45,622 bases of DNA, taken from contig JBBQYK010000001.1 in the NCBI GenBank assembly GCA_038208765.1, positions 1 through 45,622 of the forward strand, given 5' to 3'. Every line of letters starts with the position of its first letter. The stretch's first letter is position 1. This document shows positions 1,676 to 21,044 of the stretch, piece by piece. The position numbers and the translations under genes are program-made. Below the pieces are notes generated by a model that saw only the letters and a program-made list of their open reading frames with translations, was not told the DNA's origin and made no database searches. The DNA is from Verrucomicrobiota bacterium (GTDB taxonomy: Bacteria; Verrucomicrobiota; Verrucomicrobiia; Limisphaerales; SIBH01).

Positions 1676-1693
1676 GGGTGAACACCCCATAGC
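1676..1693 (+). promoter_or_regulatory. GGGTGAACACCCCATAGC box, copy 1 (function unproven)
   Basis: Intergenic. Ends 33 nt before ATG 1727. Same orientation as the downstream gene. Confidence 0.5.
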
Positions 1694-1726
1694 TCCCGCC
1701 CCGCGTTCCGGGCTATTTCTTGTGCC

Positions 1727-2209
1727 ATGAAGGAAAACATGATGGGGCCGGAGAGGGAATCATTCGACGCAACATTCGCCCACGAGGCGAGTCCACCGTT
1801 GCGCATTCTCGTGGTGGATGATGATGATGATATCCGCCGTCTCAACGCCGAAATGCTGCTGCGCTCCGGCTACGAAGTGGATGCCGCCGAGGATGGCGAT
1901 GCGGCCTGGGATGCGCTCAGCACCGACGGCTATGATCTGGTGATCACCGACAACAACATGCCGAAGGTGACCGGCGTGGAGTTGCTCCAGAAGCTGCGGG
2001 CCGCCCGCATGAACCTGCCGGTCATCATGGCGACAGGCTCCGTGCCCCAACCGGCCGTCAACCAAGCTCCCTGGCTCCAACCCACCGCCCTGTTGGTCAA
2101 GCCTTACACCGTGGATGAATTGCTGCGCACGGTGCAGCAGGTCTTGCGCGCCAATGCTGGGGCTGGCGAGACCGCGCCCACCCAACGAGCCGCCGCGGCA
2201 CGGGGGTGA
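1727..2209 (+). CDS. Single-domain CheY-like response regulator
   Basis: ILVVDDDDD, DLVITDNNMPKVTG, VIMATGS and LLVKPY give a canonical receiver with no output domain. ATGs at 1739/1742 are alternative starts. Confidence 0.85.
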   Translation: MKENMMGPERESFDATFAHEASPPLRILVVDDDDDIRRLNAEMLLRSGYEVDAAEDGDAAWDALSTDGYDLVITDNNMPKVTGVELLQKLRAARMNLPVIMATGSVPQPAVNQAPWLQPTALLVKPYTVDELLRTVQQVLRANAGAGETAPTQRAAAARG

Positions 2210-2221
2210 ACACCCCATAGC
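2203..2221 (+). promoter_or_regulatory. GGGGTGAACACCCCATAGC box, copy 2
   Basis: Contains the TGA stop (2207-2209) of the preceding receiver gene. Flanked by the inverted repeat CGGCACG/CGTGCCG. Ends 31 nt before ATG 2253. Confidence 0.5.
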
Positions 2222-2252
2222 GTGCCGCGCGGTCGTGAACCATTCTCGTGCG

Positions 2253-2456
2253 ATGAAGAAGGATCGCACGCCTTCCCCAAAGCTTGACCAGCCCGTCCGG
2301 CGTGAAACCTCCGCGCTCACGCCCGGGCAGATGGATGAGCTGGCCAGCCACATTTTTTGGGGCGACGGCCGCGAGGCCGAGAGCGTGAGCGAGCATTGGC
2401 CGGAGGCGCACGTGCGGTTGCTCGCCGGCCGGCCCGCCAATCGGACGGCCTTGTGA
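2253..2456 (+). CDS. Hypothetical small protein (67 aa)
   Basis: ATG-initiated ORF with high third-position GC like neighbouring genes, preceded by box copy 2. No recognisable domain. Confidence 0.35.
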   Translation: MKKDRTPSPKLDQPVRRETSALTPGQMDELASHIFWGDGREAESVSEHWPEAHVRLLAGRPANRTAL

Positions 2457-2638
2457 AGGACCGTCACAAAAAGAAACCACTGTTCTTCGGCGACTGCATG
2501 ATGCGGGTGGAGGACGTGTGCGGTGACCGGCTCGCGTCCATCGTGGTGCAGCTTGCGGTCCATCGCCGCGCCTTGACTTTTCGTGAACAACAACGCTTCA
2601 TCGTTCTGTAAGAACCGGGCATCGCCAGGGAAAAAATT

Positions 2639-3112
2639 ATGACCAAGCTATCTCAAACCTACCGCTTCACTCCGCCCGCCGCGTCGCCGCTCTGCCCCTT
2701 GAACCGCTCGGCGCGCATCCTCGTGTTGGACAAAAGCGAGGTTCTGCGGGGGATCTGCGTGGAGCTGCTGGCCGAGCGCGGCTACGAGGTGGACGCCGCC
2801 GCCGATGGCCAAGCGGGCTGGGAAGCGCTGCTGGCCCGGCCGTATGACCTGCTCATCACCGAGCACGACCTGCCGAGGCTGAACGGACTGGAGCTGATCA
2901 AGAAGGTGTGCGCTTCCAGCCTGACGCTCCCGATCATCATTGCGTCCGGCTCACTTTCGTCCGGCGAATTGCGAAGGCATCCGGCCATCCAGATTGCCGC
3001 CGCGCTGCCCAAGCCTTTCTCGCCGAGGGAATTTGTCCAAACCGTGCAGGAGGTGCTCGGCGACGAGAGCCGGCTGAGTTTGACGCACCACCAGGATCTG
3101 CTCAGCGCATGA
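2639..3112 (+). CDS. CheY-like receiver-domain protein with non-canonical active site (Glu at the phospho-acceptor position)
   Basis: Paralogous to 1727..2209 (GYEVDAAADGQAGWEAL vs GYEVDAAEDGDAAWDAL). It has LDKSE instead of the acidic pair, and DLLITEHDLP instead of DLVITDNNMP. The conserved S (IIASGS) and K (LPKPF) are kept. Confidence 0.8.
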   Translation: MTKLSQTYRFTPPAASPLCPLNRSARILVLDKSEVLRGICVELLAERGYEVDAAADGQAGWEALLARPYDLLITEHDLPRLNGLELIKKVCASSLTLPIIIASGSLSSGELRRHPAIQIAAALPKPFSPREFVQTVQEVLGDESRLSLTHHQDLLSA

Positions 3113-3285
3113 AACAAATATTTTCCGCCCTGCGCCGCGCCTTGAAAAAGCTCGGCGAACTGCCGCTCTCCAAATCCACGCTCGCCCGTCGCGCCTCGTT
3201 GCAAAGCGAGGCGCAGGCCCGCGAAACCAGCGCGGCCGAGCGTCTCGACCGCCTGCGCAACCCGCGCGACTATCAGGGCCGATGA
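3109..3285 (+). CDS. Hypothetical small basic protein (58 aa), start overlaps the stop of the receiver gene (ATGA)
   Basis: ATG 3109-3111 overlaps TGA 3110-3112. Third-position GC is high. No recognisable domain. Confidence 0.4.
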   Translation: MKQIFSALRRALKKLGELPLSKSTLARRASLQSEAQARETSAAERLDRLRNPRDYQGR

Positions 3286-3336
3286 ACGCGGCCGGCCGGC
3301 CAGCCGGAGGTCCGCCGGCCCATTCCCTCCCGCCGT

Positions 3337-3355
3337 GGGGTGACCACCCCATAGC
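3337..3355 (+). promoter_or_regulatory. GGGGTGACCACCCCATAGC box, copy 3
   Basis: Intergenic. Ends 36 nt before ATG 3392. Confidence 0.5.
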
Positions 3356-3391
3356 CTCGGCCCTTCCTCCGGCGCATGGTGCCGAGCCATC

Positions 3392-3925
3392 ATGGGCAAG
3401 AATGTTCAACCCACCGGCTTGAAGGAATGCAAGACGCGGCTGGCCCGGGCCGAAACCCGCACCGCGGAGGCCGAGACGCGTACCGAGCAGGCCAAGACCC
3501 GCGCCGAGTCGGCGGAGGCGCGGACCGAGCAGGCCGAAACCCGGACGGAGTCGGCGAAGCAACGCACGGAGCAGGCCGAAACGCGGACCGAACAAGCCGA
3601 GACGCGCACGGAGCGCGCCGAGGCGATGTTGCATCGCTTGCAGCACCATGAAATGGACGTGAGCGGGACCAACCTCAAGAACATCACCGATCCGCGTCTC
3701 GCCATTTCGAAAAGTTCGCTCGAACAACTGACCGGCCGGCAGCGGGAAATTCTCCAGTTGATTGCCGAGGGCCAGAATACCAAGAGCATCGCCGAGGTGC
3801 TCAAGGTCAGCCCCAAGACCGTGGAGTATCATCGCATGAAACTGATGGCGGGTTTGAACCTGCATGACATTCCCGGACTGGTGCGCTTCGCCCTGCGCGT
3901 CGGATTGATTCCGCAAGAAGGCTGA
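3392..3925 (+). CDS. LuxR-family HTH protein with an N-terminal heptad-repeat (coiled-coil-like) region and no receiver domain
   Basis: C-terminal LTGRQREILQLIAEGQNTKSIAEVLKVSPKTVEYHRMKLM is a LuxR/GerE-type HTH. The N-terminus holds nine AETRTEQ-like heptads. Confidence 0.8.
   Translation: MGKNVQPTGLKECKTRLARAETRTAEAETRTEQAKTRAESAEARTEQAETRTESAKQRTEQAETRTEQAETRTERAEAMLHRLQHHEMDVSGTNLKNITDPRLAISKSSLEQLTGRQREILQLIAEGQNTKSIAEVLKVSPKTVEYHRMKLMAGLNLHDIPGLVRFALRVGLIPQEG
3443..3631 (+). repeat. Nine tandem 21-nt (heptad) coding repeats
   Basis: The heptads are ARAETRT, AEAETRT, EQAKTRA, ESAEART, EQAETRT, ESAKQRT, EQAETRT, EQAETRT and ERAEAML. The DNA unit is approximately GAGCAGGCCGAAACGCGGACC. 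Confidence 0.8.
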
Positions 3926-3943
3926 TGGACGCAGCCTAAGCAG

Positions 3944-4663
3944 TCAGCGCAGGAATTCGCGCAGGCGGTAGAAACGCTTCGTGAAGTTCGCCGCGTTCGG
4001 ATCGGTCATTTCCAGCGCGTGGGCGGACCGAATGGGCACCACAGCAATAGCCGTCCAACCGAGCAAATCTTCTGACGCCTCGACGAAAAAGAACCGGCCC
4101 GCCGCCCCTTGCACGCTCAGGATCATCTGTCCGCCGGGCGTGAGACGGGTCTGTATCCTGGGGCCTCTGGGCACGCTGGGCACGTAACTCACCTCGGCGG
4201 AAAATCCGCTCTCCAGTCCACCCGCATCGTAGGCCGTGATGACAAAGAAATAGGCCACGCCTTCCGTCAGTCCCGTCATCGTCCGGCTCGTCACGAGGCC
4301 CGCCACCACGCTCCCGGAATAATTTCCGCTCGCGGTGCCGAAATAGACGCGGTAGCCGGCCACTGCATCGGAGACGGGGTTGCTGTCCCACATCAACGTC
4401 ACGCTGTGCGTGGCGGGCGGCGGCGCGCTGAACACCAACGTGGGCAGGAGGAGCAGCGGGAGGAACACGGTTCCGGCCAGTCCTTTCGTGAGCCTCGCGA
4501 GACGCGAAGAACGGCCGGACACTCCGTGGGCGGCAGCCTTTTCTGCTTGGGAATTTTGGGGCACCAGGAACGGTATGGCCCGCCCCGTGCGCCCGCGACT
4601 AGGGTGATCCTTGCCAAGGGCTGGGAGAAACCTTGGGGCCGGGTGCATGGAAAAAGTTTGCAA
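3944..4663 (-). CDS. Secreted fibronectin type III domain protein
   Basis: Hydrophobic signal-like segment GTVFLPLLLLPTLVFSAPPP. FN3 signature VTLMWDSNP...VAGYRVYFGT...LTEGVAYFFVITAYD. The C-terminal beta-rich domain ends in RFYRLREF. The true start is uncertain and may be internal. Confidence 0.75.
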   Translation of the reverse strand: MQTFSMHPAPRFLPALGKDHPSRGRTGRAIPFLVPQNSQAEKAAAHGVSGRSSRLARLTKGLAGTVFLPLLLLPTLVFSAPPPATHSVTLMWDSNPVSDAVAGYRVYFGTASGNYSGSVVAGLVTSRTMTGLTEGVAYFFVITAYDAGGLESGFSAEVSYVPSVPRGPRIQTRLTPGGQMILSVQGAAGRFFFVEASEDLLGWTAIAVVPIRSAHALEMTDPNAANFTKRFYRLREFLR

Positions 4664-4681
4664 CGGTTGAGTTCATCGGAT

Positions 4682-4699
4682 GGGGTGAGAACCCCATAT
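4682..4699 (+). promoter_or_regulatory. GGGGTGAGAACCCCATAT box, copy 4
   Basis: Lies in the divergent intergenic region, in + orientation, 129 nt before ATG 4829 of the giant gene. Confidence 0.45.
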
Positions 4700-4828
4700 C
4701 TCACGCTGAAAGTTGTGCCTATGGTCTCGCTGCTTAAAAACGACAACGGCTTTTAAGATCAGGGATCAACCAAATGCTCGACCCGACGTGCGTGTGGTGC
4801 GGTGCCGGATCACAAAGCCAACACAACC

Positions 4829-7800
4829 ATGAAAACTCCGACTCGAAATCAGAAATCAAACTCGCATCCTCAATCTTTCCACGCCCGCCGTCCCCATCGC
4901 TTCAGGTGTCTTCACGTGCCGATGCTGCTCCTGGCTTTGGCCCTCCTGATTTTTGGACCGACCCGGACCAACGCCCAGGGCATTCCGCCGGGCTGCTCGG
5001 GCAGCGCCATCGGCATCAGTCTGTTCACCTCCGCGCCGGACGTGCATATCGGCGACACGCTGACCTACAGCGTCAGCGTGTTCAACGGCATCATCGGCAA
5101 TCCCACCTCGTGCGACGCGTCGAACATCACGGCCTCCCTCACCACGCCCGATGGCGTCGTTCATCCCATCGTCTTGCGGCGGACCTATCTGATGCACGGC
5201 CAGTCTGATTTCTATTCCAACGTCGTCAGCTACGTGGCGCGCGCCCAGGATGTGCGCCCGGACGGCACGCTGCGCGCGACCGCCGAGGACACAGCCACGA
5301 TTTTCCAGAACGACACGCCGAGCACGGGCGGCGCGAACCAGGGTGTGAACACCGAGGTCAGCCTGCCCTGCATCCAGCTCTTCGTGCAGTGCGTCCCCAG
5401 CGTCGGAGAAAACGGAGCCATCGTTTTCAACGGCACGATCACGAATTGCGGCAACAACACGCTGGTCGGCGTTACGGTGACGAATTACGTCAACGGCGGC
5501 GCGTTCCCGGTTTTCTTCCCGACGAACCTCCTGCGCGGGCAGAGCGTGAGTTTCACCGGCAGTTATGTCCCTGACGATCCGTGCCAGCCCAGCACCGCGA
5601 CGCTCGTGGCCACCGGCCGCGATCAGTTCACCGCCAATCCGCGCACGGTCATTTCCACCAACCTCACCACCTGCTCCGCCGTGATCACGCGCGGCATCCG
5701 GGTCACCAAGACCTGTCCCGTCGGCCCGACCGCTCCGGGGGCCTTGCTTACTTTCTCCGGCAGCGTGAGCAACACCGGCAACATCACGATCTCGAACGTG
5801 GTCGTGGTCAACAATCAGCCCGCGCCCAACACGCCGGTCTTTACCCGTGCTTCGCTCGCGCCGGGTGAAGTGGCCAACTTCACCGGCAGTTACATCGCTC
5901 CGACCAATTGCTCGGTCACCGACACGCTGACCGCCACCGCCACCGGCTCTTGTGGCGTGCCGGTTTCAAGCACGGCCTCCGCGACTTGCGCCCTCACCAC
6001 CGCGCCCGCGATCACGGTCACCGAAGTTTGCCCGATCACGCCCGGCGTTTCCGGCGGCAGTTCGAGCTACGGCGGCGTGGTTCGCAATTCCGGCAACATC
6101 ACTTTGAACAACGTCGTGGTGGTCAGCGACCGCCCGGCTCCGAACACCGTCGTGCTGACGGTGGCGTCGCTCGCGCCCGGCGCGTCCGCCAATTACTCGG
6201 CGAACTTCACCGTGCCGCTCAATGTCTGCTCGGTCACGACGTCCGTGCGGGCCACGGGCAACGACAGTTGCACCGGCACCGCGGTCACCAACACCGCCAC
6301 GGCCACCTGCCCCATCACGACGGCTCCGGCGATTGCGGTCACGCTCGCCTGTCCCGCCACCCAATCGACCAACGGCGGCTTGATCACCTACACCGGCACG
6401 GTGCGGAACTCCGGCAATGTCACGCTGAACAACATCGTGGTGACGGCGCCGCAATCCTCGCCCTCCACGGTTTTCACCACGCCCAGTCTCGCTCCGGGAG
6501 CGTCCGCCAATTTCACGGCCAGCTTCACCGCGCCGACCAGCAATTGCTCGGTCAGCAGCACGGTGATCGCCACCGGCAGCGACAATTGCACGAGCGCGTC
6601 GGTGACCAACACCGCCTCGGCCACCTGCACGCTGGCCACGAATCCGCGCCTCATCGTCACGCAACTTTGCTCGGCCAGTCCCGTCAGCCCCGGCGGCGTG
6701 CTCGCCTACAGCGGCACGGTCAGCAACGCCGGCAACGTCACCGTGACGAACATCGTGGTGACGAATGATCGCACTGGAACCACGCCCGTCTTCACGACGG
6801 CGCAATTGCTCCCCGGCGCGACCACCAACTTCAACGGCAGCTACACCGTCCCCGCGAATGCCGACTGCTCCATCACTTCCACGCTGACCGCGCGCGGCAA
6901 CGACCTTTGCTCCGGCAGCGTCGTGACCCATGCCGCCTCCGCGACGTGCTCCATCACCGGCACGCCGTTGATCAACGTCACGTTGAACTGCCCGGCCAAC
7001 TCGGTCGTGACCGGCAATTCGATCACCTTCTCCGGCACGGTCAGCAATCCCGGCAACGTCACGCTCGTCAACGTGACGGTCGTGAACAACCAGGCCTCGC
7101 CGAGCACGGTCCTGACCGTGGCGACGCTCGCGCCGGGCGCGTCCGCTAATTTTAACGCCACCTTCTTCTCGCCGGCCAACGCCTGTTCCGTGAGCAGCAC
7201 GGTGACGGCCCGCGGCAGCAACACTTGCGCGGGTGTGTTCGCGACCGCGAGTGCGTCCGCGACCTGCACCCTCCTGACCTCGCCGGCGCTCGTCGTCCGG
7301 CAGAATTGTCCGGTGACTCCCGTGAGCGCGGGTGGCGTGCTCGCCTACAGCGGCAGCGTCAGCAACGCCGGCAACCTCACGCTCACCAACGTGAACGTGA
7401 TCAACAATCAGACGGGCACGAACATCATTTACACGGCGGTGACGTTGCTCCCCGGCGCGGTCAGCAATTTCACCGGCAGCTACACGGTTCCGGCCGGAAC
7501 GCTCTGCACCATCTCGTCCACGGCGACGGCGACCGGCCGGGAAATTTGCGCGGGCAACACGTTGACCAATACGGCGACGGCCACCTGCACCCTGGCCACG
7601 GCTCCGGCGATTGCGGTCACGTTGAACTGTCCGGTGAATCCGGTGGCACCCGGCGGAACGGTTTCTTACACGGGCAATGTTCTCAATTCCGGCAACGTCA
7701 CGCTGAACAACGTGACGGTCGTGAACAACCAGGCTTCACCCAGCACGGTCTTGACCGTGGCGAGTCTCGCGCCGGGCGCTTCCGCCAGTTTCACGGCGAG

Positions 7801-10744: not shown

Positions 10745-10758
10745 CTTCAGAAATCATG

Positions 10759-10793
10759 AAGGCCGGTGTCATCGGGACACCGGCCTTTTTTTT
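10759..10793 (+). terminator. Rho-independent terminator of the giant gene
   Basis: 12-bp stem AAGGCCGGTGTC/GACACCGGCCTT, 5-nt loop and an 8-T run, starting 15 nt after the stop codon. Confidence 0.75.
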
Positions 10794-10978: not shown

Positions 10979-11131
10979 CAACTGCATCGTTCCGGTTAAG
11001 GAGGCAGGGCCGGTCCGATCCGGCTGACGGGCGGGATCCTTGGATATCGGCCTAAAAATTGGCGCGGCTGGCCCGGCCGCGCTGCGGAGTATGATGCGCC
11101 GATGGATCGTTTGATTCCCTTCCGGGTCGGT

Positions 11132-11149
11132 GGGGTGGACACCCCAGAG
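11132..11149 (+). promoter_or_regulatory. GGGGTGGACACCCCAGAG box, copy 5
   Basis: Intergenic, upstream of the PRC/BON gene. Confidence 0.45.
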
Positions 11150-11153
11150 AATT

Positions 11154-11165
11154 ACACCCCATACC
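11154..11165 (+). promoter_or_regulatory. ACACCCCATACC half-box, copy 5b
   Basis: Right half-site plus the ATA tail, 4 nt after copy 5. Ends 73 nt before ATG 11239. Confidence 0.4.
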
Positions 11166-12596: not shown

Positions 12597-12616
12597 AATT
12601 CAGCCCGCAGACTGAT

Positions 12617-12856
12617 GTGAAGCTCGCGACGGTAAAAACTTTGCTCCTGTCCGGTGCCCTGGCGACCGGCACCGCGCTCCTCTGGATGAGGCAGAGTCCG
12701 CCGCCGCCCCGCCCCTCCCTACACCCGGACCCGGCCCCTGAGGCCGCCCATGAAAACAGCGGAGGGCCCAAGCCCAAGTCACAGGCGGTGGCCGGCGCCC
12801 GCCATTTCGAAGGGCGCACGAATTTTTCCAAAGCACCGGCGGACCCGCCGCAATAA
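12617..12856 (+). CDS. Hypothetical small membrane-anchored or secreted Pro-rich protein (GTG start)
   Basis: Hydrophobic N-terminus VKLATVKTLLLSGALATGTALLW, followed by a Pro-rich tail. Third-position GC is moderately high. No homology recognised. Confidence 0.3.
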   Translation: MKLATVKTLLLSGALATGTALLWMRQSPPPPRPSLHPDPAPEAAHENSGGPKPKSQAVAGARHFEGRTNFSKAPADPPQ

Positions 12857-12933
12857 AAAAAACTCGCCGTGCCCCGTGCGCGCCGCTAGTTAGAGGGACG
12901 CATTCTGCGCTGGGACGACATACAAACGGGAGA

Positions 12934-13119
12934 ATGATGCATCCAAAAATTTGCCGTTGCTGCGGCCAATCCATCCCGGATCCGAGATCATCCAATCCCA
13001 ACGTGTGCGGGGGCTGCGAAGAGTGGTCAGGCGAAGTCGAGTGCGGCCCTTTGGAAAATCCGGCCGAGATGGCAAGCATCGCGAGTCACTCTAACGTGGG
13101 TCTCCTCCCTGAGCATTAA
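12934..13119 (+). CDS. Hypothetical small Cys-rich protein (CxxC...CxxC zinc-ribbon-like)
   Basis: MMHPKICRCCGQ...VCGGCEEW. It sits in a lower-GC patch, and codon bias is weaker than in neighbouring genes. Confidence 0.25.
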   Translation: MMHPKICRCCGQSIPDPRSSNPNVCGGCEEWSGEVECGPLENPAEMASIASHSNVGLLPEH

Positions 13120-13360
13120 ACGACGCCCTTCCCGACTTCAGCTTTCAGCTTTGCTATTTGACCCGGATCACCCAGTGGAACTGAAAATGGGTTCCGGATC
13201 CGCCAGCACGCGGCTGCGCGTGCCGTCCTCGCGCTCGACGATGATTTCCTCGCCGCGGATCGCCCTGCCCTCCCGGATCGTCCGGTGCCATCGGGTGCCG
13301 TCAGGGTGAAAGTTTTCCACGAACCGCACCAGAGGTCATGGTTCAGTTCGGATGTGCGCC

Positions 13361-13379
13361 GGGGTCAACACCCCATAAT
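13361..13379 (+). promoter_or_regulatory. GGGGTCAACACCCCATAAT box, copy 6
   Basis: Intergenic, + orientation, upstream of the CBM48-led gene string. Confidence 0.45.
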
Positions 13380-13424
13380 TGTCAGTCCCAATCGTAGGAA
13401 GAACCAAGCTCCGCCTCTCTCGGT

Positions 13425-13442
13425 AGGGCAACACCCCATAAC
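13425..13442 (+). promoter_or_regulatory. AGGGCAACACCCCATAAC box, copy 7
   Basis: Intergenic. Ends 87 nt before ATG 13530. Confidence 0.45.
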
Positions 13443-13529
13443 CCACGCGAGATCTTTGCTGCATCATGGCGACGGGGAAATGGAATCGCCCTCCGAGTGC
13501 AAGGGCTTCCACCCTCAGAATTACTGGCT

Positions 13530-13895
13530 ATGAAACATAACAAGAACCACGACAACGCCCCGAACGCCGGCCCGCAACTGGTGCCCGTGCATTTTGAATT
13601 CACGCATCCCACCGCGCAGAGCGTCTGCGTCGCGGGGTGCTTCAACCACTGGAAACCCGAAGCCAAGGCGCTGCATCCCGCCGGTGACGGGCGCTGGGTG
13701 AAGGAGACGGTGCTGCCGCCGGGCACCTACGAATACTGCCTGGTCGTGGATGGCGAGTGGATGCCCGATCCGCTGGCGAAAGATCATGTCCCCAACCCGT
13801 ACGGTGGCCGGAACTCGCTGCTCACCGTGCCTTCGCCGGAAGTCACGCATCTCGTCAACGCGCAGAATGTGCCGCTGCCTGACATCTTGCGATGA
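13530..13895 (+). CDS. Small stand-alone CBM48 / AMPK-beta-type glycogen-binding-domain protein
   Basis: VPVHFEFTHPTAQSVCVAGCFNHWKPEA..L.....G.W.....LPPGTYEYCLVVDGEWMPDP matches the E-set/CBM48 pattern. Confidence 0.8.
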   Translation: MKHNKNHDNAPNAGPQLVPVHFEFTHPTAQSVCVAGCFNHWKPEAKALHPAGDGRWVKETVLPPGTYEYCLVVDGEWMPDPLAKDHVPNPYGGRNSLLTVPSPEVTHLVNAQNVPLPDILR

Positions 13896-14623
13896 TCCCC
13901 AACGATCGAACGACCCACTTTTTGTCCCGCCTGGAAACCGGTTTCCGCATGGATGCCGCGCGCCTGGAAACGCTGGAGCAGGATTTAACGGCGGCGTTGC
14001 AGCGCGCCCGGCATTTCGGCACGGAACAGGGCGGTGATTGGAACACGGGCTGGCAACAGCAGTGGGACCACGTGGAAGAACTGCTGCGCCGCATCCGCTG
14101 GCTGGTGGATGAGATGGAAAGTTCCATCGACAGCAGCGACCCCGGCCGGCTCAAAGCCTCGCTGGCGTCGTGGGAAACGATTCAAGCGGAGGACGCGAAA
14201 CTGGTGGCCGCGCTGGCCGCGCTGCGCACGCACGCCGTCGGCTTGAACCCGGACGTGCGGGACGACTGGAGCCTGCTGGCCCGCACGCTGGAGTCGCATG
14301 TGGAAACGATCCGTTCCTGTGCGCAGGCGTTGCGCATCAAGATCGAGCTGCTGCAAAAGCACTCCAAGGCCGAAGTGGATCAACTGGTGCTGGAGATTCT
14401 CGCCCGGCTCCCGGACCGCGCGCGGACAGAAGGAATGAGCGCCGAGATTTACGCGCAGGAATACGCCGCCGCCGCCCAGGAACTGGACAAAGAGCATCAC
14501 AAGTTTCTGGGCTTCGTGGACGCGGTCAAAGCCTTGCTGCTCTGGGTCGAATCGCCCGAGGAACGGACGGACAAGAACCTGTCGAAGCAGACGGCACCAG
14601 CCCTGCCCGTCCCGATTTTATGA
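13892..14623 (+). CDS. Hypothetical all-helical (coiled-coil-like) protein
   Basis: The ATG overlaps the previous stop (ATGA at 13892-13895). Codon bias is strong. No recognised domain. Confidence 0.7.
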   Translation: MIPNDRTTHFLSRLETGFRMDAARLETLEQDLTAALQRARHFGTEQGGDWNTGWQQQWDHVEELLRRIRWLVDEMESSIDSSDPGRLKASLASWETIQAEDAKLVAALAALRTHAVGLNPDVRDDWSLLARTLESHVETIRSCAQALRIKIELLQKHSKAEVDQLVLEILARLPDRARTEGMSAEIYAQEYAAAAQELDKEHHKFLGFVDAVKALLLWVESPEERTDKNLSKQTAPALPVPIL

Positions 14624-14889
14624 AACAAGATAAACATCCCCAGACTCCGAAACCGGCGGACGCCTCCCAGCCCACGGAGGCGGAGTGGAATCAAGAGCGC
14701 ATGGACTTCGCGCCCACAGCGGACGAAGTCGCCCGCCGCGCCTACTTCAGTTATCTGAATCACGGTGCGGGTCCCGGACACGATGTGCAGCACTGGCTCG
14801 TGGCCGAGGCGGAACTGCTCGCGGAACGCAACCTCACGCGCGTGCACGGATTTCCGAATCACACCCACAAACTCCCGCAACCAACATGA
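14620..14889 (+). CDS. DUF2934-family small protein
   Basis: ATGA overlap with the previous gene. The motif ARRAYFSYLNHGAGPGHDVQHWLVAEAEL matches the RAY..W...G...G...DW..AE signature as I remember it. Confidence 0.7.
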   Translation: MKQDKHPQTPKPADASQPTEAEWNQERMDFAPTADEVARRAYFSYLNHGAGPGHDVQHWLVAEAELLAERNLTRVHGFPNHTHKLPQPT

Positions 14890-15356
14890 AGAATCCATTT
14901 ATCAACCCCACCATCCAAGCCCGAGATCTGACGAAACAAGCCCCGCACCGTGCCCGCGACCGGCTTGCCGGCTTCGCCATTGCGCGCCGGACCATCGACA
15001 AATGCCGCGCCAGCGTGGCGGGCACCTTGGGCGAGTTTCACTACGACTGTCCGCTCGACAACCAGCTCTTCAGTTTCAAGGGCATCACGGCCGATCAATT
15101 CAAGGCGGTCGTGCAGGCCGCGAAAAGCGATGAAGAGATCGGCGCGTGGCTCCAGGCCAACGGCACGGCGAAAACGCCGGCGGAAATCCAGGCCTGGTCG
15201 GAGAAGATGGATGCCGGGAGCATGATGAAGAACCCGGAGAAGCGCGCCTATTTCATCGCCGAGTGTTCCAAGCTCGGACTGAATCCGGAGACGAACACCA
15301 CCTTCGACTGGCTGGATGCGGATGACCGCGAGTGCTTCCCTCATGCAACCGCGTGA
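14886..15356 (+). CDS. DUF5069-family protein
   Basis: ATGA overlap with the previous gene. The motifs LAGFAIARRTIDKCRASVAGTLGEFHYDCPLDNQLFSFKGI and SDEEIGAWL resemble DUF5069, recognised from memory. Confidence 0.7.
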   Translation: MKNPFINPTIQARDLTKQAPHRARDRLAGFAIARRTIDKCRASVAGTLGEFHYDCPLDNQLFSFKGITADQFKAVVQAAKSDEEIGAWLQANGTAKTPAEIQAWSEKMDAGSMMKNPEKRAYFIAECSKLGLNPETNTTFDWLDADDRECFPHATA

Positions 15357-15374
15357 CCCTTAAAATGGAAATTT

Positions 15375-15584
15375 ATGAAACCAGCCGCCACCAAATACTC
15401 GAAGCCACGTCCCCCCGCTTATACCACGGTCGTCCACACACCGGGGCCGCTCCTCAAGTCCGCCCCGCTCGCACCCCAGTCGTTAAAGCGGGAGAACATT
15501 TTCTCCCAGTCGCGCGACACCCGCGAAGATCGCAGCGCGCGCCAGATGAAGAACCACCCGCAAACTTTTTCACATGGACACTGA
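15375..15584 (+). CDS. Hypothetical small basic protein (69 aa)
   Basis: By hand count, about 72% of codons end in G/C, like real genes here. It starts 18 nt after the previous gene and ends 10 nt before the next. No homology recognised. Confidence 0.35.
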   Translation: MKPAATKYSKPRPPAYTTVVHTPGPLLKSAPLAPQSLKRENIFSQSRDTREDRSARQMKNHPQTFSHGH

Positions 15585-15594
15585 TCATTAACGC

Positions 15595-16005
15595 ATGAAA
15601 ACCAATCCTTTGAAGCAGGGTATCCTGATCGAGCATTCCGCCGGCGTGGGCACGGTGACGCGCACGATGGTCCGGGAGCGCGCGGTGGAACTGGCGGTCA
15701 TCGACGGACGCACGGCGCAGGACGTCACGAAATCCGACTTGGAACAGGCCAGGCGGGAACTGACCAGCGAACCGGGCAGCGACGGAAACGAGCTGCTGCT
15801 CGAAACTGTGCCCGAATCCGAACGCTGGGAAGTGGTGTCCGGCTCCACCGGATTCAAAGTGCCCGCCGCCGCCAGCGAAGACGAGGATGACGAGGGCCGC
15901 AGCGACAACGCCCGGCTCGTGGAAGAAGGCGTCGCCGGGGCGGATCATGAACAGAGACTCCAGGCGACCCGAGAAGCAGCCAAAAAGGAGGAAGGCGCGC
16001 CTTGA
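15595..16005 (+). CDS. Hypothetical acidic protein (136 aa)
   Basis: Strong codon bias. Contains VRERAVELAVIDGRTAQDVTKSDLEQARREL and an acidic tail. No recognised domain. Confidence 0.65.
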   Translation: MKTNPLKQGILIEHSAGVGTVTRTMVRERAVELAVIDGRTAQDVTKSDLEQARRELTSEPGSDGNELLLETVPESERWEVVSGSTGFKVPAAASEDEDDEGRSDNARLVEEGVAGADHEQRLQATREAAKKEEGAP

Positions 16006-16051
16006 GCCAACCTCGTCACCTTGAAGAATACCCCGTTCGGTGCCATGCCAT

Positions 16052-16477
16052 ATGAGCCGATCCACACCACTCATGCGTGATTTCGCCGGGCGCCTCATCA
16101 GCCATGAGGCACGGGAGAAAAAGCCTGCCAAGAGCCAGGATCCGAGGGTCTTTCAAAGTTGTGAGAAGCTGCGTTTGCATCTGACGACCATCATGGGAAG
16201 CCCCGGTTTTCGCACCCTGCTGTTGCGCACGCTCGCGCTCGCCACCCGGGAAGTTCCCTGGCTGCGCGCGGTGCGGGTCAAGGCGGACGGGTCTTTGGAA
16301 GGTCTGGAGGAACTTCAAGCGCAGCACGACCGGGACACCTTCCTCGAAGGCGGAGTGGTCCTGCTCGCCCACTTGCTCGGACTGCTGGTGGCTTTCATCG
16401 GAGGCAATTTAACGGTGCGGCTGGTGCGCGAGATCTGGCCGAAGATTTCGCTCCACGATTTGAAACTAGAAAACTGA
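16052..16477 (+). CDS. Hypothetical protein immediately upstream of the kaiC-like gene
   Basis: ORF in coding-type composition, with an alternative GTG start at 16040. Ends 7 nt before the kaiC-like ATG. Hydrophobic segment VVLLAHLLGLLVAFIGG. Confidence 0.6.
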   Translation: MSRSTPLMRDFAGRLISHEAREKKPAKSQDPRVFQSCEKLRLHLTTIMGSPGFRTLLLRTLALATREVPWLRAVRVKADGSLEGLEELQAQHDRDTFLEGGVVLLAHLLGLLVAFIGGNLTVRLVREIWPKISLHDLKLEN

Positions 16478-16484
16478 GGAATCC

Positions 16485-18056
16485 ATGAAAAAACAAAAAC
16501 CTGCGGCCAAACCCGCTGCGCCGGGAAAAGGCGTGAGCAAGGAGTCCAAGGTCAAGATCCGCAAGCTGCCGACCGGCGTGCGCGGGCTGGACGAAATTCT
16601 CGGCGGCGGCATCCCGGAATTTTCTTTCAACATCATCGCCGGCACGCCGGGCTGCGGCAAAACCACGCTGGCGCACCAGATCCTTTTTGCCAACGCCACG
16701 GTGAAGAAACCCGCGCTCTATTTCACCGTCCTGGGCGAACCCGCCCTGAAGATGCTGCGCTATCAGCAACAGCATTCTTTCTTCGACGAATCCAAGCTGG
16801 GCCGGGCCGTCCGCTTCGTCAACTTGAGCGATGTGCTCATGGAGGGGGACTTGAGCGCGGTGCTGGATGAGGTCATCAGGCAGGTCACGGCGGCCAGCCC
16901 GGGCATCGTGGTGGTGGACTCGTTTCGCAACGTCGTGCGCCAGGCCATCGCCACCCCGAGCGAGGCGGACATGCAATGGTTCATCCAGAGCCTCGCCCAG
17001 TTCCTCACCAGTTGGGAAGCTACGACGTTTCTGGTCGGTGAATATGTCCCGGAAGAGATGCGCGACAATCCAGTGTTCACCGTCGCCGACGGACTGTTCT
17101 GGCTGTCGCAATTGACGGAGCGGAATTCCGTGGTGCGCAAATTGCAAATCATCAAATTGCGCGGGCAGGCTTCGGTGCCGGGTTTGCACACCTTCCGCAT
17201 CAACGACGACGGGTTGCAGGCCTTCTCGCGCACGTTGGGATTGGGCGGCAAAAGTATGAACCCGTCGCGGAGACGGCGGCGGCTGTCCCTGGGCATTCCC
17301 GAAATGGACAAGATGCTGAACGGCGGCCTGCGGGAAGGCGACAGCCTCCTCGTGGCCGGACCTTCCGGCACGGGAAAGTCGGCGCTGGCCACGCACTTTA
17401 TTGCCGAAGGATTGCGGCGAGGGGAAGCGGCCATCATGGCGCTCTTTGAAGAACGCCCGGAAGGCTACGCGGATCGCGCGGCCAGTCTGGGTTTGCATTT
17501 CAAAACGCCGCAGGAGCAGGGAAAACTCGAACTGCTTTACCTGCGGCCGCTTGATCTTTCGGTGGATGAAATCACGCAGCAGATTCTCGATGCCGTCAAA
17601 CGGGTCGGCGCCAAACGGCTGGCGATTGATTCGCTGGTCGGTTTTGAAATGGCGTTGGCACCCGGTTTCCGCGAGGACTTTCGCGAATCGCTCTACCGCT
17701 TGATCGTGGCGTTGACTGGTGCGGGGGTCACAATTCTGACCACGGTGGAAGTGGAAGACAACTTCACCGCGCTGCAGTTCAGTCACTACGCAATTTCGTT
17801 TCTCACGGATGACATCATCCGGCTGCGCTATGTGGAAATTGACGGCCAGCTTCGCAAAGTGATGGTCGTGATCAAAATGCGCGGCGGCAATCACAGCAAG
17901 GACATCCGCGAATACATCATCACGGACAAGGGCGTGGTAATCATCCTCCCGCGGATGAAGGATTACGAGGGGTTGACCACCGGGATACCCCATCGCACCG
18001 GCCCGCGCCCGGCGCAGGCCGACGAGGCCGCGCCGGAACCCAAGGCGAAAAAGTAG
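16485..18056 (+). CDS. kaiC: KaiC-family double RecA-like ATPase
   Basis: Two KaiC/RecA-type halves are present. Their Walker A motifs are GTPGCGKTT and GPSGTGKS, and each half carries GVRGLDEILGGGIP or GIPEMDKMLNGGL. The C-terminal YVEIDGQLRKVMVVIKMRGGNHSKDIREY aligns with the cyanobacterial KaiC CII region. Confidence 0.92.
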   Translation: MKKQKPAAKPAAPGKGVSKESKVKIRKLPTGVRGLDEILGGGIPEFSFNIIAGTPGCGKTTLAHQILFANATVKKPALYFTVLGEPALKMLRYQQQHSFFDESKLGRAVRFVNLSDVLMEGDLSAVLDEVIRQVTAASPGIVVVDSFRNVVRQAIATPSEADMQWFIQSLAQFLTSWEATTFLVGEYVPEEMRDNPVFTVADGLFWLSQLTERNSVVRKLQIIKLRGQASVPGLHTFRINDDGLQAFSRTLGLGGKSMNPSRRRRRLSLGIPEMDKMLNGGLREGDSLLVAGPSGTGKSALATHFIAEGLRRGEAAIMALFEERPEGYADRAASLGLHFKTPQEQGKLELLYLRPLDLSVDEITQQILDAVKRVGAKRLAIDSLVGFEMALAPGFREDFRESLYRLIVALTGAGVTILTTVEVEDNFTALQFSHYAISFLTDDIIRLRYVEIDGQLRKVMVVIKMRGGNHSKDIREYIITDKGVVIILPRMKDYEGLTTGIPHRTGPRPAQADEAAPEPKAKK

Positions 18057-18065
18057 AGGGGATTT

Positions 18066-19073
18066 ATGGTTGCGAAACTCACACCAGGCATTTCTGAAGA
18101 GGCCGAAGCCTCGCCGGTCCATGAAAGGATGCTCGCGATGAACGAGGCGTTAATTCGTGGATCCGTGCAGCAGCATGAACTCACCGAGGCGGCTGAGATA
18201 TTGAACGAACAACTGCGTTTGGAAATCGCCGAGCGCCTGCGGGCCGAGGAGGCGCTGCACCGGGCGCAAGGGCTACTGGCCGACCGGGCTGTGCGGCTGG
18301 AAGAAGCCGTCTCAGCACGCACCCTGGAACTGACCGCGACCAACCAGCAACTGGAAGCCTTCGTCTATTCCATCGCGCATGACCTGCGCGCGCCCCTGCG
18401 GGCCATGCAGGGTTTTTCGACGCTGCTGGTCGCGGAGGCGGGCGCAGCCTTGAGCGCCCAGAGCCAGGACTATGCCGCGCGCATCAGCAAATCGGCGCAA
18501 TTCATGGATGCGCTGTTGATTGATCTGCTGGACTTCAGCCGCGTCAGCGAGCAGCGCGTGGAACTGACGGCGGTGAACCTGGAGACGGTCGTGGCATCCG
18601 TGCTGGCCCGTTTGCCACACGACCTCCAGGGAAAACCCGCGCGCGTGGAAAGTTCCGGGCCGTGGCCGGTCGTGCTGGCCCATGAGGCCACCCTGGCCCA
18701 GGTGTTGTTCAACTTGGTGAGCAATGCGGTAAAATTTATCCGGCCGGACGTGTCCCCCGTGGTGCGGCTGCGCGCGGAAGAACGAATGTCGGGCGAAGGC
18801 GCGATGGCCCTCGACTTTGGCCCCTCGACTCCCGACCGCCGCGTGGTCCGCGTGTGGGTGGAAGACAACGGCTCGGGCATCGCTCCCCGGCATCAAGAGC
18901 AAATCTTCCGGATCTTCACCCGCCTGAACGGGGACAAGTATGAGGGGACGGGCATCGGTCTGGCGATTGTCCAGAAAGGCGTCGAACGCATGGGAGGACG
19001 CGTGGGCGTGGAATCCGTGCCCGGCCAGGGCAGCCGTTTTTGGTTTGAGTTGCGACCTTCTCCCACCAGCTGA
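18066..19073 (+). CDS. Histidine kinase (coiled coil + HisKA + HATPase_c) with no recognisable sensor or TM domain
   Basis: H-box FVYSIAHDLRAPLRAMQGF, N-box LFNLVSNAVKF, and EDNGSGI and GTGIGLAIV boxes. The first ~95 aa are helical only. Confidence 0.9.
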   Translation: MVAKLTPGISEEAEASPVHERMLAMNEALIRGSVQQHELTEAAEILNEQLRLEIAERLRAEEALHRAQGLLADRAVRLEEAVSARTLELTATNQQLEAFVYSIAHDLRAPLRAMQGFSTLLVAEAGAALSAQSQDYAARISKSAQFMDALLIDLLDFSRVSEQRVELTAVNLETVVASVLARLPHDLQGKPARVESSGPWPVVLAHEATLAQVLFNLVSNAVKFIRPDVSPVVRLRAEERMSGEGAMALDFGPSTPDRRVVRVWVEDNGSGIAPRHQEQIFRIFTRLNGDKYEGTGIGLAIVQKGVERMGGRVGVESVPGQGSRFWFELRPSPTS

Positions 19074-19552
19074 TGAACGAACCACAAACATTCCTCCTGG
19101 TGGACGACAGCGTGGACAATCTCTTCCTCATGCGCGCGGCCTTTAAAATGGCCAAGTGCCACCACCCGCTGCAAGAAGTCCATGATGGCGAAGAAGCGAT
19201 TGCCTACCTGAACGGCGAAGGTCCGTACGGTGACCGGAAGATATTTCCGCTGCCGACGGTCATGCTGCTGGATCTGAATATGCCCAAGAAGGGCGGCTTC
19301 GAGGTCCTGGAGTGGGTGCGCGCGCAGCCGGTGCTCAAACGCCTGACGGTCATCATCCTGACCGCCTCCACGCGCCGCGAAGACGTCGCGCAGTCCTTCG
19401 ATCTGGGCGCGAACTCGGTCTTGGTCAAACCGACCAGCCTGGCCACCTTGGCGGCGATGATGCGATGTCTGTGTGCCTGGGTGGAGATCAGTCAATTTCC
19501 GCCGCTTATTGAGGCGGGAGGAAATGAGAAGCACACGCAGCAGGTGAAATGA
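19073..19552 (+). CDS. Single-domain CheY-like response regulator
   Basis: The start shares one base with the kinase stop (TGATG). Receiver residues: LLVDDS, MLLDLNMPKKGG, IILTAS and VLVKP. Confidence 0.9.
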   Translation: MNEPQTFLLVDDSVDNLFLMRAAFKMAKCHHPLQEVHDGEEAIAYLNGEGPYGDRKIFPLPTVMLLDLNMPKKGGFEVLEWVRAQPVLKRLTVIILTASTRREDVAQSFDLGANSVLVKPTSLATLAAMMRCLCAWVEISQFPPLIEAGGNEKHTQQVK

Positions 19553-19621
19553 TCTTAGTCCGATAGTAACCTTCCAGCCGAGGCGTTGAACTCCGATATT
19601 TGGCACTGATGGGATTTACCT

Positions 19622-21043
19622 GTGAACGAAACACCCGAGCGATTTGACTGGGATGTCGCCATCCTCGGCGGCGGCAGCGCCGGCTACGCGGCGGCACGGA
19701 CGGCGGCGGCGGATGGTTTGCGAACGGTCGTAATCGAGGACGCCGAGGAAGTGGGCGGCCTGTGCATCCTGCGCGGCTGCATGCCTACGAAGGCGCTGCT
19801 CTACGCCGCTGAAGTTCTGCATCACACCCGTCATGCGGAGCCGTGGGGACTGCGCGTGGAGAAGGTGAGTTTCGACTTCGCGAAAGTCATGGCCCGCAAG
19901 GACGCGCTCATCCAGGAATTCGCCGACGAGCGCCGCGCGCAACTGGCGGGTGGCAAGTTCCAATTCATCCGCGCTCGCGCGAGTTTTCTCGATCCGCACA
20001 CGGTCGCGCTGAACCACGGAGGTTCGCTCACCGCCGCGCATTTCGTCATCACCACCGGCTCCACGGTCGGCCCGGCTCCCCTGCCCCAGCTTCGCGACGT
20101 GGGCTATCTCACGAGCGATGAGGTGATGAAGCTGACGCAACTCCCGAAATCTCTGATTGTGCTCGGCGGCGGCGCGGTAGCGGTGGAACTGGCGCAGTTC
20201 CTCGCGCGCTTCGGCGTCCACGTCACGCTGCTCCAGCGCGGCGCGCACCTCCTGGGTGAGTTCGACACTGATGCGGCGCTGGAACTGGAGAAGGTCTTCC
20301 GCCGCGAAGGCATCAATCTTTTCACCAACACGGAACTGACCGGTGCGCAGCGCGACGGGGCGCGCAAAACCGTTTCGTTTCGGCAGCACGACCAGCCCGC
20401 GTCCGTCACGGCGGAGGAAATTCTCTTCGCCCTCGGTCGGGTGCCGAACACCGCGTCGCTAAATCTCGCGAAGGCCGGCGTGGCCACCGAACGCGGGCGC
20501 ATTGTGGCGAACGACTTCATGCAGACGAGCACGCCGCACATTTACGCCGCCGGCGATTGCACCGGGCCGCACGCCATCGTGCATCTCGCCGTGCGGCAGG
20601 GCGAAGTGGCGGCCCACAACCTCGCGCAACCGAAGGCGCGGCGGCGGATGGATGACCGGCTGCTGCTCGCGGTGATTTTTACCGAGCCGCAAGTCGCGTG
20701 CGTCGGACTCACCGAAAAGACGGCGGCGGCGCGCAACATTCCCTGCCTCACCGCGCGCCATCCGTTCCGTGACCACGGCAAATCGCTGATCATGGAAGCA
20801 CGGGACGGCTTCGTAAAACTTCTCGCTGATCCGCAGACTGGGGAAATTCTCGGCGGCGCTTGCGTCGGGCCGTCCGGCGGCGAACTGATTCACGAGATCG
20901 TCGTGGCGATGTCGGAACGGATGACCGTCCACAAACTCGCGGCGGTGCCGCACTACCATCCCACCCTGGCCGAAATCTGGACGTATCCGGCGGAAGAACT
21001 GGCGGCGCGCATCCCGGTCGCGCGGCAGGGTAACACCCCATAG
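19622..21043 (+). CDS. FAD-dependent pyridine nucleotide-disulfide oxidoreductase (dihydrolipoyl dehydrogenase / mercuric reductase-like class I)
   Basis: GTG start. FAD fold VAILGGGSAGYAAA, redox-active CILRGC, a second Rossmann LIVLGGGAVAVE, and a dimerisation-domain tail HYHPTLAEIW. Confidence 0.88.
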   Translation: MNETPERFDWDVAILGGGSAGYAAARTAAADGLRTVVIEDAEEVGGLCILRGCMPTKALLYAAEVLHHTRHAEPWGLRVEKVSFDFAKVMARKDALIQEFADERRAQLAGGKFQFIRARASFLDPHTVALNHGGSLTAAHFVITTGSTVGPAPLPQLRDVGYLTSDEVMKLTQLPKSLIVLGGGAVAVELAQFLARFGVHVTLLQRGAHLLGEFDTDAALELEKVFRREGINLFTNTELTGAQRDGARKTVSFRQHDQPASVTAEEILFALGRVPNTASLNLAKAGVATERGRIVANDFMQTSTPHIYAAGDCTGPHAIVHLAVRQGEVAAHNLAQPKARRRMDDRLLLAVIFTEPQVACVGLTEKTAAARNIPCLTARHPFRDHGKSLIMEARDGFVKLLADPQTGEILGGACVGPSGGELIHEIVVAMSERMTVHKLAAVPHYHPTLAEIWTYPAEELAARIPVARQGNTP

Positions 21044-21044
21044 C
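21028..21044 (+). promoter_or_regulatory. GGGTAACACCCCATAGC box, copy 8
   Basis: Its TAG (21041-21043) is the stop codon of the oxidoreductase gene. Ends 74 nt before ATG 21119. Confidence 0.45.

Follow-up and report, generated by a model that had tools for sequence, protein, structure and literature searches.

A 20-bp palindrome conserved across Verrucomicrobiota: a probable operator with a NarL-family response regulator as its candidate binder

We analysed a 45,622-nt stretch of DNA from a Verrucomicrobiota bacterium of the Limisphaerales (contig JBBQYK010000001.1, forward strand; the whole stretch is hereafter called the window), in the left half of which a short palindromic box recurs ahead of genes on the + strand. 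At its left edge lies a HisKA_3 histidine kinase gene (1..838, +; Pfam HisKA_3 and HATPase_c), which has no in-frame stop before position 17. Since the kinase is truncated by this edge, the promoter of its operon lies outside the window. The kinase is followed by the gene of its partner (852..1529, +), a NarL-family response regulator that combines a receiver (REC) domain (Pfam Response_reg, 5.7e-28) with a GerE helix-turn-helix (HTH; 1.1e-16); it is the proposed binder of the box, and its closest solved structures are VraR, DesR, NarL and DevR. Downstream come the first units that would form the regulon (1727..3112, +; Pfam), consisting of a receiver (1727-2209), a 67-aa open reading frame (ORF) that matches no family (2253-2456) and a second receiver (2639-3112), and then a protein with a heptad-repeat coiled coil and a GerE HTH (3392..3925, +; Pfam GerE 1.6e-16), whose N-terminus is made of AETRTEQ-type repeats and is not a receiver domain. 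The initial annotation of the sequence had named two LuxR-HTH proteins here, and by Pfam both 852-1529 and 3392-3925 do carry a GerE/LuxR HTH.

The full unit of the box is a 20-bp dyad, TATGGGGTG-WW-CACCCCATA, usually followed by GC. It had initially been described as a 6-2-6 inverted repeat followed by ATAG; the actual unit is larger, 9-2-9. We derived a position weight matrix (PWM) from 178 non-redundant related sites and scanned the window with it, which returned nine + strand 20-mers, starting at 1672, 2200, 3334, 4679, 11129, 11144, 13358, 13421 and 21023. These are exactly the nine copies that the initial annotation had read by eye between 1.67 and 21.04 kb, and its 'half-site' at 11154 reappears as the site 11144..11163. 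Exact copies of CACCCCATA number seven in the window, all of them on the + strand, in keeping with the shared orientation claimed earlier, and all within 1683-21042, against 0.04 expected from 100 dinucleotide shuffles. Allowing one mismatch, ACACCCCATA had 8 matches versus 0.77 expected, and PWM scores of at least 16 were reached by 12 window matches, counting both strands of palindromes, versus 0.03 in shuffles. In contrast, the 6-2-6 core alone (GGGGTG-N2-CACCCC with up to two mismatches) gave 6 matches against 3.2 expected and is not significant. The informative portion of the box is its right half together with ATA.

Matches to the palindrome consensus with up to six mismatches were at noise level (22, against 23 in shuffles), and thus only matches with at most four mismatches, or with a PWM score of at least 14, were treated as meaningful. 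Under these limits the right half of the window contained no site in the PWM scan apart from one weak match on the - strand (34327-34348, score 15.1, CACGGCGTTTTCACCCGATAGA), which lies in the 5' part of an ORF for an extracytoplasmic-function (ECF) sigma factor (34274-34891). As it falls within this gene it is probably a chance match, and we set it aside; the earlier remark that no copies occur past 21.1 kb is changed by this match only. Seven of the nine sites are wholly intergenic, while intergenic DNA makes up 11.4% of the first 21.7 kb. The remaining two overlap the end of the preceding gene. The initial annotation had allowed for them as copies that merely supply a stop codon, and TGA 2207-2209 and TAG 21041-21043 do lie inside the sites at 2200 and 21023, but the overlaps are longer, comprising the final 10 nt and about 20 nt of these genes, respectively.

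We also scanned 185,579 species genomes with GGGTGNNCACCCCATA; the figures that follow cover the 120 matches listed, and compared loci carry labels of the form Lnnn. At least 46 of these matches come from Verrucomicrobiota or are alike by motif form, and the taxa represented include Limisphaerales, 'subdivision 3', Opitutaceae, Prosthecobacter, Akkermansia muciniphila and Methylacidiphilales. Counted among the 46 are one Victivallales metagenome-assembled genome (MAG; L053) and three MAGs labelled just 'bacterium' or Bacteroidetes (L025, L095, L109). The spacer was AA or TT in 60 of 66 Verrucomicrobiota-type matches, the left flank of which reads (T)AT, compared to 17 of 74 matches in other phyla. 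The spacer and the left flank thus define the full unit as the 20-bp dyad. The 178-site profile correspondingly reads aTGGGGTG-WW-CACCCCATA, and many sites are perfect 20-bp palindromes. Because of their low share of AA/TT spacers, and because many lie inside coding sequence, the matches in other phyla appear chance-like. Furthermore, homologues of the window's kinase, regulator, receivers, CBM48 protein, DUF5069 protein, orf15595, PRC/BON protein and OsmC (40-77% identity) occurred in the Verrucomicrobiota loci and were absent from 542 kb around the other-phyla matches listed. The motif is therefore conserved across the phylum Verrucomicrobiota. Genes of similar kinds neighbour it in other loci too, and the homologues by themselves place the window most likely in this phylum. 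Among the papers searched for the motif strings and for regulons in Verrucomicrobia, none described it, and motif and regulon appear to be undescribed so far.

To place the box relative to promoters, the 178 sites, drawn from the Verrucomicrobiota loci, the regulator loci described below and the window, were aligned on CACCCCATA. Information was limited to the dyad, to G and C at the next two positions (0.68 and 0.61), and to three positions counted from ATA, +22 (T, 0.50), +23 (A, 0.60) and +27 (T, 0.63). The signal from +22 to +27 is a TAnnnT hexamer resembling a -10 box, separated from ATA by a 21-nt gap. The distance from ATA to the ATG of the first long ORF peaked sharply at 32-36 nt, which puts the A of the ATG about 7 nt past the hexamer, i.e. 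at the expected transcription start. If the -10 box occupies -12 to -7, the right half-site would span -42 to -34 and the dyad would be centred at about -43.5 relative to the predicted start; the conserved G after ATA would coincide with the G of a -35 TTG at 17-nt spacing. In the window, xAxxxT was found at +21 to +23 in six of the nine sites, against about 10% by chance, a seventh site has TATTTC at 1714, and the two sites that have no -10-like box (11129 and 13358) are the upstream members of two-site promoters. A scan of 1450-21400 for sigma-70 -35/-10 consensus pairs found none at any site; the sole pair in this interval, where 3.3 were expected, lies on the - strand, distant from the sites. 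A fixed site over -35, a -10 box and an absent -35 consensus would together make up a class II-type promoter layout around a predicted start.

Site 1 (1672..1691, +; CATTGGGTGAACACCCCATA then GC; PWM 31.9) is promoter-proximal to the first receiver gene, with the -10-like TATTTC at 1714-1719 and the ATG 36 nt after ATA; this site also precedes the ATG of REC orthologues in L068, L087 and L018, by 32-34 nt. Site 2 (2200..2219, +; ACGGGGGTGAACACCCCATA then GC; PWM 27.8), at the end of this receiver gene, is followed by CATTCT (2241-2246); ATG 2253, 7 nt further on, is predicted to start a leaderless mRNA. The initial annotation had listed two receivers among the genes behind the boxes; behind this site the 67-aa ORF comes first and the second receiver after it. 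Site 3 (3334..3353, +; CGTGGGGTGACCACCCCATA then GC; PWM 26.4), with CATGGT at 3375-3380, precedes the coiled-coil LuxR-HTH gene, the ATG of which (3392, at +39) would leave a leader of some 4-5 nt. The three copies singled out earlier for their closeness to an ATG are indeed these three, at 36, 34 and 39 nt past the last A of ATA compared to 76-153 nt for the others, and ATGs 1727 and 2253 match the predicted start while 3392 lies 4-5 nt beyond it. Such promoters are predicted often to yield leaderless mRNAs. In Akkermansia muciniphila, leaderless starts account for about 10% of mapped transcription start sites (PMC4782308).

Site 4 (4679..4698, +; GATGGGGTGAGAACCCCATA; PWM 22.3; TATGGT 4720-4725) occupies the divergent gap between an fn3-domain ORF (3944-4663, -; Pfam) and a giant repeat protein (4829-10744, +). 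Sites 5a and 5b overlap. Site 5a (11129..11148, +; GGTGGGGTGGACACCCCAGA; PWM 19.5) lacks a -10-like box at the fixed distance and would be the distal, auxiliary dyad of a two-site composite promoter, while site 5b (11144..11163, +; PWM 16.5; CACCTT 11185-11190), with a strong right half CACCCCATA and a degenerate left half, is promoter-proximal to a PRC-barrel/BON gene (11239-12516, +; Pfam). L111 has a homologue of this gene close to a site, and in five loci a site is followed by a BON protein. Site 6a (13358..13377, +; GCCGGGGTCAACACCCCATA; PWM 18.3), which is likewise distal and has no -10-like box at the fixed distance, stands 63 bp upstream of site 6b (13421..13440, +; CGGTAGGGCAACACCCCATA; PWM 19.7; CATCAT 13462-13467). 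Site 6b has a 'TAGGG' variant of the left half, a type also seen in L013, L069, L085 and L111, and is promoter-proximal to the CBM48-to-KaiC gene string from 13530; CBM48 homologues stand behind a site in L042, L130, L137 and L191. Site 7 (21023..21042, +; CGGCAGGGTAACACCCCATA then GC; PWM 21.8; TAGCCT 21063-21068), within the end of a Pyr_redox gene, precedes a 35-aa transmembrane peptide and OsmC/Ohr. OsmC homologues (75-81% identity) were found downstream of sites in L003 and L070; OsmC also has a homologue near the regulator in L169, a locus in which no site was detected.

Composite promoters, in which a variant TAGGG-AA-CACCCCATAG overlaps a full palindrome at an offset of 15 bp downstream, were present in eight independent loci, including L128, L131, L152 and L158. 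They carry three half-sites in 35 bp, the left half of the variant reading TAGGG(N)AA, and the window pair 11129/11144 is a degenerate form of this composite (11129-11163). L053 (Victivallales) differs in having an offset of 23 bp.

The asymmetries of this alignment raise the question of whether the right half, CACCCCATAGC, might be a -35-region element of an alternative sigma factor and not an activator site. The promoter-proximal half is the better conserved one, and the G and C after ATA break the symmetry and fall at about -33/-32, as such an element might. However, the left half is kept as a mirror image in most sites, many perfect 20-bp palindromes serve divergent genes, and CACCCC lies at least 24 nt from the -10 box, too far for a -35 element of the sigma-70 family. 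Nor does any sigma gene move with the island: the only one in the window is the ECF gene at 34274-34891, 13 kb from the last site. We consider a sigma-factor element very unlikely.

A palindromic and mostly intergenic box, with two copies at gene 3' ends, could also be a structural or mobile repeat, such as a repetitive extragenic palindromic (REP)-like element, or an RNA hairpin acting in termination or mRNA stability. The initial annotation had dismissed a hairpin on account of the 2-nt centre. This argument is invalid, since a stem of 7 bp and a loop of 4 nt can form in the fuller copies (-10 to -13.6 kcal/mol), but its conclusion holds on other grounds. Among 253 distinct sites, mirrored positions almost always changed one-sidedly and compensatory double changes numbered 0-1 at the seven central pairs; this near absence of compensation makes a hairpin or REP element unlikely. 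Of six window copies, three had folds no better than those of shuffles, the palindrome is not followed by a T-run, and an Rfam search at gathering thresholds matched no family to the box, the only match being a tRNA elsewhere in the window. REPs do occur in Verrucomicrobia, where GTAG-tagged families are abundant in Opitutus terrae, and some variant copies of the box start with GTAG; short intergenic palindromes are thus common to both (PMC3733652). REP families, however, are species-specific and mostly 3' of genes (PMC3733652), as well as high-copy, maintained as stems and linked to REP-associated tyrosine transposases (RAYTs), whereas the sequence of the box is identical across orders of the phylum, its flanks outside the dyad are unrelated, and it lies upstream of genes, phase-locked to a -10-like box and ATG, with no compensation. 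No RAYT was present among the part of the window ORFs scanned. A repeat or hairpin origin is on this evidence extremely improbable, and the box is very probably a protein-binding operator of a conserved regulon.

We examined the coupling of the box to the regulator in 80 metagenomic loci that were picked solely for an orthologue of 852-1529 (67-87% identity), without the motif being consulted. In their 565 kb we found 96 exact copies of CACCCCATA and 180 PWM sites, i.e. 0.32 per kb versus about 0.0007 per kb in shuffles, the motif being about 400-fold enriched around these orthologues. The regulator gene's orientation was shared by 130 of the 180 sites, and a + strand site lay within 900 nt past the regulator stop codon in 36 of 53 loci with enough flank, as it does in the window. 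Furthermore, in at least 16 of 32 loci a site stood upstream of an operon encoding a ~240-aa HisKA_3 protein, the kinase orthologue (~385 aa) and the regulator, which is a classical pattern of autoregulation. Starting from the motif instead led to the kinase-regulator pair in L085 and L053 (Victivallales) and to a kinase homologue alone in L009 (59% identity) and L069 (36%). The recognition helix KTVEKHR is invariant in 84 orthologues of 852-1529. The early suggestion of a dimeric NarL/LuxR-type regulator encoded nearby gains support from the conserved dyad, the fixed distance to the -10 box and this enrichment, and we regard it as probable, on present sequence evidence, that 852-1529 binds the box and acts as an activator.

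Several observations weigh against this assignment. Among orthologue loci with sufficient flank, about one third lack a site where one would be expected. The link to 852-1529 is one of neighbourhood, and as the island travels whole, another conserved protein of the island could be the binder. Some neighbourhoods also contain a second GerE-type HTH, namely 3392-3925 in the window and a second NarL-type regulator in L129, L130 and L141. With respect to the kinase, the match of its N-terminus to RsbU_N is marginal (26.4 bits against a cut-off of 25.5 in one protein, and below the cut-off in another). Finally, a site overlapping -35 might also repress.

The second HTH gives rise to a specific alternative, in which the operator is bound by 3392-3925, by the second NarL-type regulator with its near-identical HTH, or by both proteins, for example an activator and an antagonist. 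The protein 3392-3925 has its own upstream site, its HTH is 68-89% identical to that of the second, kinase-linked NarL-type regulator in the same neighbourhood in L129, L130 and L141, and neighbourhood evidence is unable to tell members of the island apart. However, an HTH of the 3392-3925 type was absent from the 46 motif-derived loci (318 kb), in which the 852-1529 type occurs (L085, L053), and was present in just 4 of the 80 orthologue loci. The recognition helices are unlike (KTVEYHR in 3392-3925, KTVEKHR in 852-1529), and the autoregulatory site upstream of the kinase-regulator operon favours 852-1529, which therefore appears the better candidate; binding by the other regulators seems to us unlikely. 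Given its different helix, the kin of its HTH in three neighbourhoods and the occurrence of a full-length homologue in L191 alone, 3392-3925 is treated as a putative regulon member and as the main alternative binder.

The possibility of repression applies to whichever factor binds. A NarL-type regulator, or another protein, sitting on the promoter-proximal half-site at about -42 to -34 would block sigma region 4, and the genes would be switched on when it leaves. We judge this improbable, since the lack of a recognisable -35 hexamer is typical of activator dependence and repressor sites are usually variable in position, whereas a strict single phase to the -10 box with upstream auxiliary sites is a hallmark of class II activation, as for DevR (PMC3177182).

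We propose that 852-1529, partnered by the HisKA_3 kinase encoded at the window's left edge, would in its phosphorylated form bind the dyad as a dimer, with the better-conserved half-site toward the promoter and over the -35 position. RNA polymerase would thereby be recruited to promoters that have a TAnnnT -10-like box and no -35 consensus, in a class II-type manner as with DosR/DevR, and at some promoters a second, distal or overlapping site may aid cooperative binding. The window units at 1727, 2253 and 3392 would be transcribed as leaderless or nearly leaderless mRNAs. In related genomes the regulator would control its own operon, and the regulon would be a conserved set comprising single-domain receivers, kinases, KaiC/KaiB modules and stress or envelope proteins (BON, PRC, OsmC/Ohr, CBM48 and ice-binding-like surface proteins).

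What would be expected of a NarL/FixJ-type operator is found here, in that the 20-bp site is two-fold symmetric, is linked to a REC-GerE regulator and a HisKA_3 kinase, and stands at their own operon. The closest architectural match appears to be the DosR/DevR box (Mycobacterium tuberculosis dormancy regulon; OsdR of Streptomyces), as an analogue and not as a family to which the box would belong. The operator consensus of DosR/DevR is GGGACT-WW-AGTCCC. Common to both systems are a NarL-family regulator with a HisKA_3-type kinase, a 20-bp palindrome with G-rich half-sites and central WW, a proximal box at about -42.5 that overlaps -35, extra upstream boxes, an autoregulated kinase-regulator operon and a stress or survival regulon. 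DevR recognises a 20-bp palindrome with G-rich halves (G4G5G6A7C8T9), the proximal box lying at -42.5 and another at -63.5; it binds cooperatively, in a manner dependent on helical phase, and contacts sigma region 4 and the C-terminal domain of the alpha subunit in the activation complex (PMC3177182; PMC13486717). The half-sites found here, GGGGTG and CACCCCATA (CACCCC with its ATA extension), are however not the GGGACT of the Dev box TTSGGGACTWWAGTCCCSAA (PMC3177182), and 852-1529 is as near to VraR, DesR or NarL as it is to DevR (DevR E 7e-24). In addition, most of the promoters here carry one site only, whereas two or more are present at each DevR promoter, and the offset of paired sites is often 15 bp, giving overlapping dyads, compared to about 21 bp for DevR. 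The kinases here are without GAF or haem domains, their N-terminus being at most a marginal RsbU_N or a PAS domain, and many transcripts are predicted to be leaderless, both unlike the DosR/DevR system.

NarL of E. coli binds 7-2-7 heptamer pairs (TACYYMT-N2-AKRRGTA), to which the box had been likened in the initial annotation. The likeness holds for the geometry, an inverted repeat with a 2-bp centre and C/G-rich half-sites, and for the protein family, a GerE-type HTH dimer with a HisKA_3 kinase. It fails for the half-sites themselves, which are 9 bp long, differ in sequence and have the polarity of their G-run and C-run reversed about the centre; NarL sites furthermore occur in many positions and arrangements and both activate and repress, whereas the position is fixed here. 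The lux box of LuxR/TraR, a 20-bp or 18-bp palindrome near -42.5 used in class II activation, resembles the present box as a 20-bp dyad over -35 that serves a class II-type activator with a GerE-type HTH dimer. Its regulators, however, bind a ligand and are not phosphorylated receivers, its sequence is unrelated, and the quorum-sensing regulon is small.

The proteins encoded directly downstream of sites, 125 in number, were scanned against Pfam. Response_reg was the commonest family (21 of 125 proteins), followed by HisKA_3 (10), PAS (8), BON (5), HATPase_c and HisKA (5 each), and by Ice_binding, CBM48-type and marginal RsbU_N matches (4 each); DUF3300, DUF3568, DUF2934, KaiC and Hsp70 also stand behind sites. 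The proposal of an envelope or stress programme, made initially for the window, is plausible in that these families fit stress, envelope and signalling functions, though the label is one drawn solely from gene content. The Ice_binding count includes a case from an Akkermansia muciniphila MAG (L014:843-1748), in which a perfect palindrome (843-862) lies 83 nt ahead of a gene for a secreted ice-binding-like protein (PF11999). Autotransporter-fused ice-binding-like homologues are found behind sites in Prosthecobacter (L061), and a related 817-aa protein in L159. Besides the 67-aa and 35-aa ORFs that come first behind sites in the window, ORFs as small as 60-85 aa often stand immediately after a site in related loci (L005, L013, L018, L155, L187).

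Around the kinase-regulator pair the island varies. In L185 and L123, the closest relatives (regulator 83-87% identical), there is no synteny upstream of the regulator, and a site followed by a ~190-aa ORF takes the place of the kinase. The ~240-aa kinase paralogue that heads the autoregulated operon (L155:8143-10004; also L130, L149, L150, L152, L174 and others) has an N-terminal domain and HisKA_3 with no ATPase domain, and may be a kinase inhibitor or a phosphotransfer partner. Stressosome genes (RsbR/S/T), sought upstream of the kinase operon on account of the marginal RsbU_N match, were not present, the upstream ORFs encoding BON-domain or unknown proteins. A stand-alone ~142-aa receiver, 58-60% identical to the receiver domain of the NarL-type regulator, was found in L110 (3730-4155), directly behind a site, and in L056 (3746-4168), about 1.1 kb downstream of a site and past another ORF; this receiver may have arisen from the regulator itself and serve as a decoy or phosphate sink.

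Further genes of the window follow sites 4 to 7. The giant protein (4829-10744, +; 1,971 aa) has about 11 DUF7507 repeats with CARDB, DUF11 and InlB B-repeat-like domains by Pfam; it would be a regulon member with a predicted 5' leader of about 95 nt, and in L113 a homologue of its N-terminal part is found at the locus edge, some 300 nt past an operator site. Its unit is closed by an intrinsic terminator (10758..10788, +; a 13-bp stem with 8 GC pairs, then T8), upstream of sites 5a and 5b; the remaining terminator-like matches are mostly at chance level. As this strong terminator lies at the very start of the 99-aa ORF 10756-11055, the latter is probably not a gene. Behind site 6b a co-directional string (13530..21043, +; Pfam) encodes a CBM48 protein, an unknown protein, a DUF5069 protein, two unknowns, KaiC, a HisKA kinase, a receiver and a pyridine-nucleotide disulphide oxidoreductase, and homologues of CBM48, DUF5069, orf15595, orf16040 and KaiC occur within operator-containing loci. 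KaiC, the HisKA kinase and the receiver succeed one another at 16485-19552, and in an Opitutaceae MAG (L009:593-4213) an operator site is followed by KaiC, two KaiB genes and a PAS-HisKA_3 kinase 59% identical to the window kinase. This arrangement suggests that a non-cyanobacterial Kai module may feed the two-component circuit. The single-pass membrane peptide (21119-21226, +) is the first gene behind site 7 and is followed by OsmC/Ohr (21282-21698; Pfam). The right half of the window encodes CotH, TPR, PhoH, YbeY and a TMEM260-like protein by Pfam, and the sole Rfam match in the window is a tRNA gene at 25269-25340 (-).

Verrucomicrobiota are abundant in soil, peat and fresh water and include the gut bacterium Akkermansia muciniphila, yet to our knowledge almost nothing is known of their transcriptional regulation. 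The box would represent a new operator and regulon of a well-known kind, in which a NarL-family response regulator serves as a class II-type activator. It stands out by being nearly invariant across a whole, poorly studied phylum, by being associated with leaderless promoters and by its connection to KaiC/KaiB modules. A near-invariant, phase-locked 20-bp operator tied to one two-component system makes the regulon predictable in any genome of the group and offers a concrete candidate regulator. It also provides a defined, probably inducible promoter architecture for genetic tools in Verrucomicrobiota, and links KaiC/KaiB homologues outside cyanobacteria to a specific transcriptional circuit. 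More tentatively, the operator and the autoregulated HisKA_3 kinase/NarL-type regulator pair might be the master switch of a phylum-wide programme of the general-stress or dormancy type, extending from Verrucomicrobiota into Lentisphaerota, which would work by class II activation, produce largely leaderless transcripts and connect to KaiC/KaiB modules and to a set of single-domain receivers with feedback on the phosphorelay. We know of no RpoS- or SigB-like system described in Verrucomicrobiota and Lentisphaerota. If this possibility proved true, it would amount to an independent, DosR-like solution to global stress control, for which Akkermansia muciniphila would be a tractable test case.

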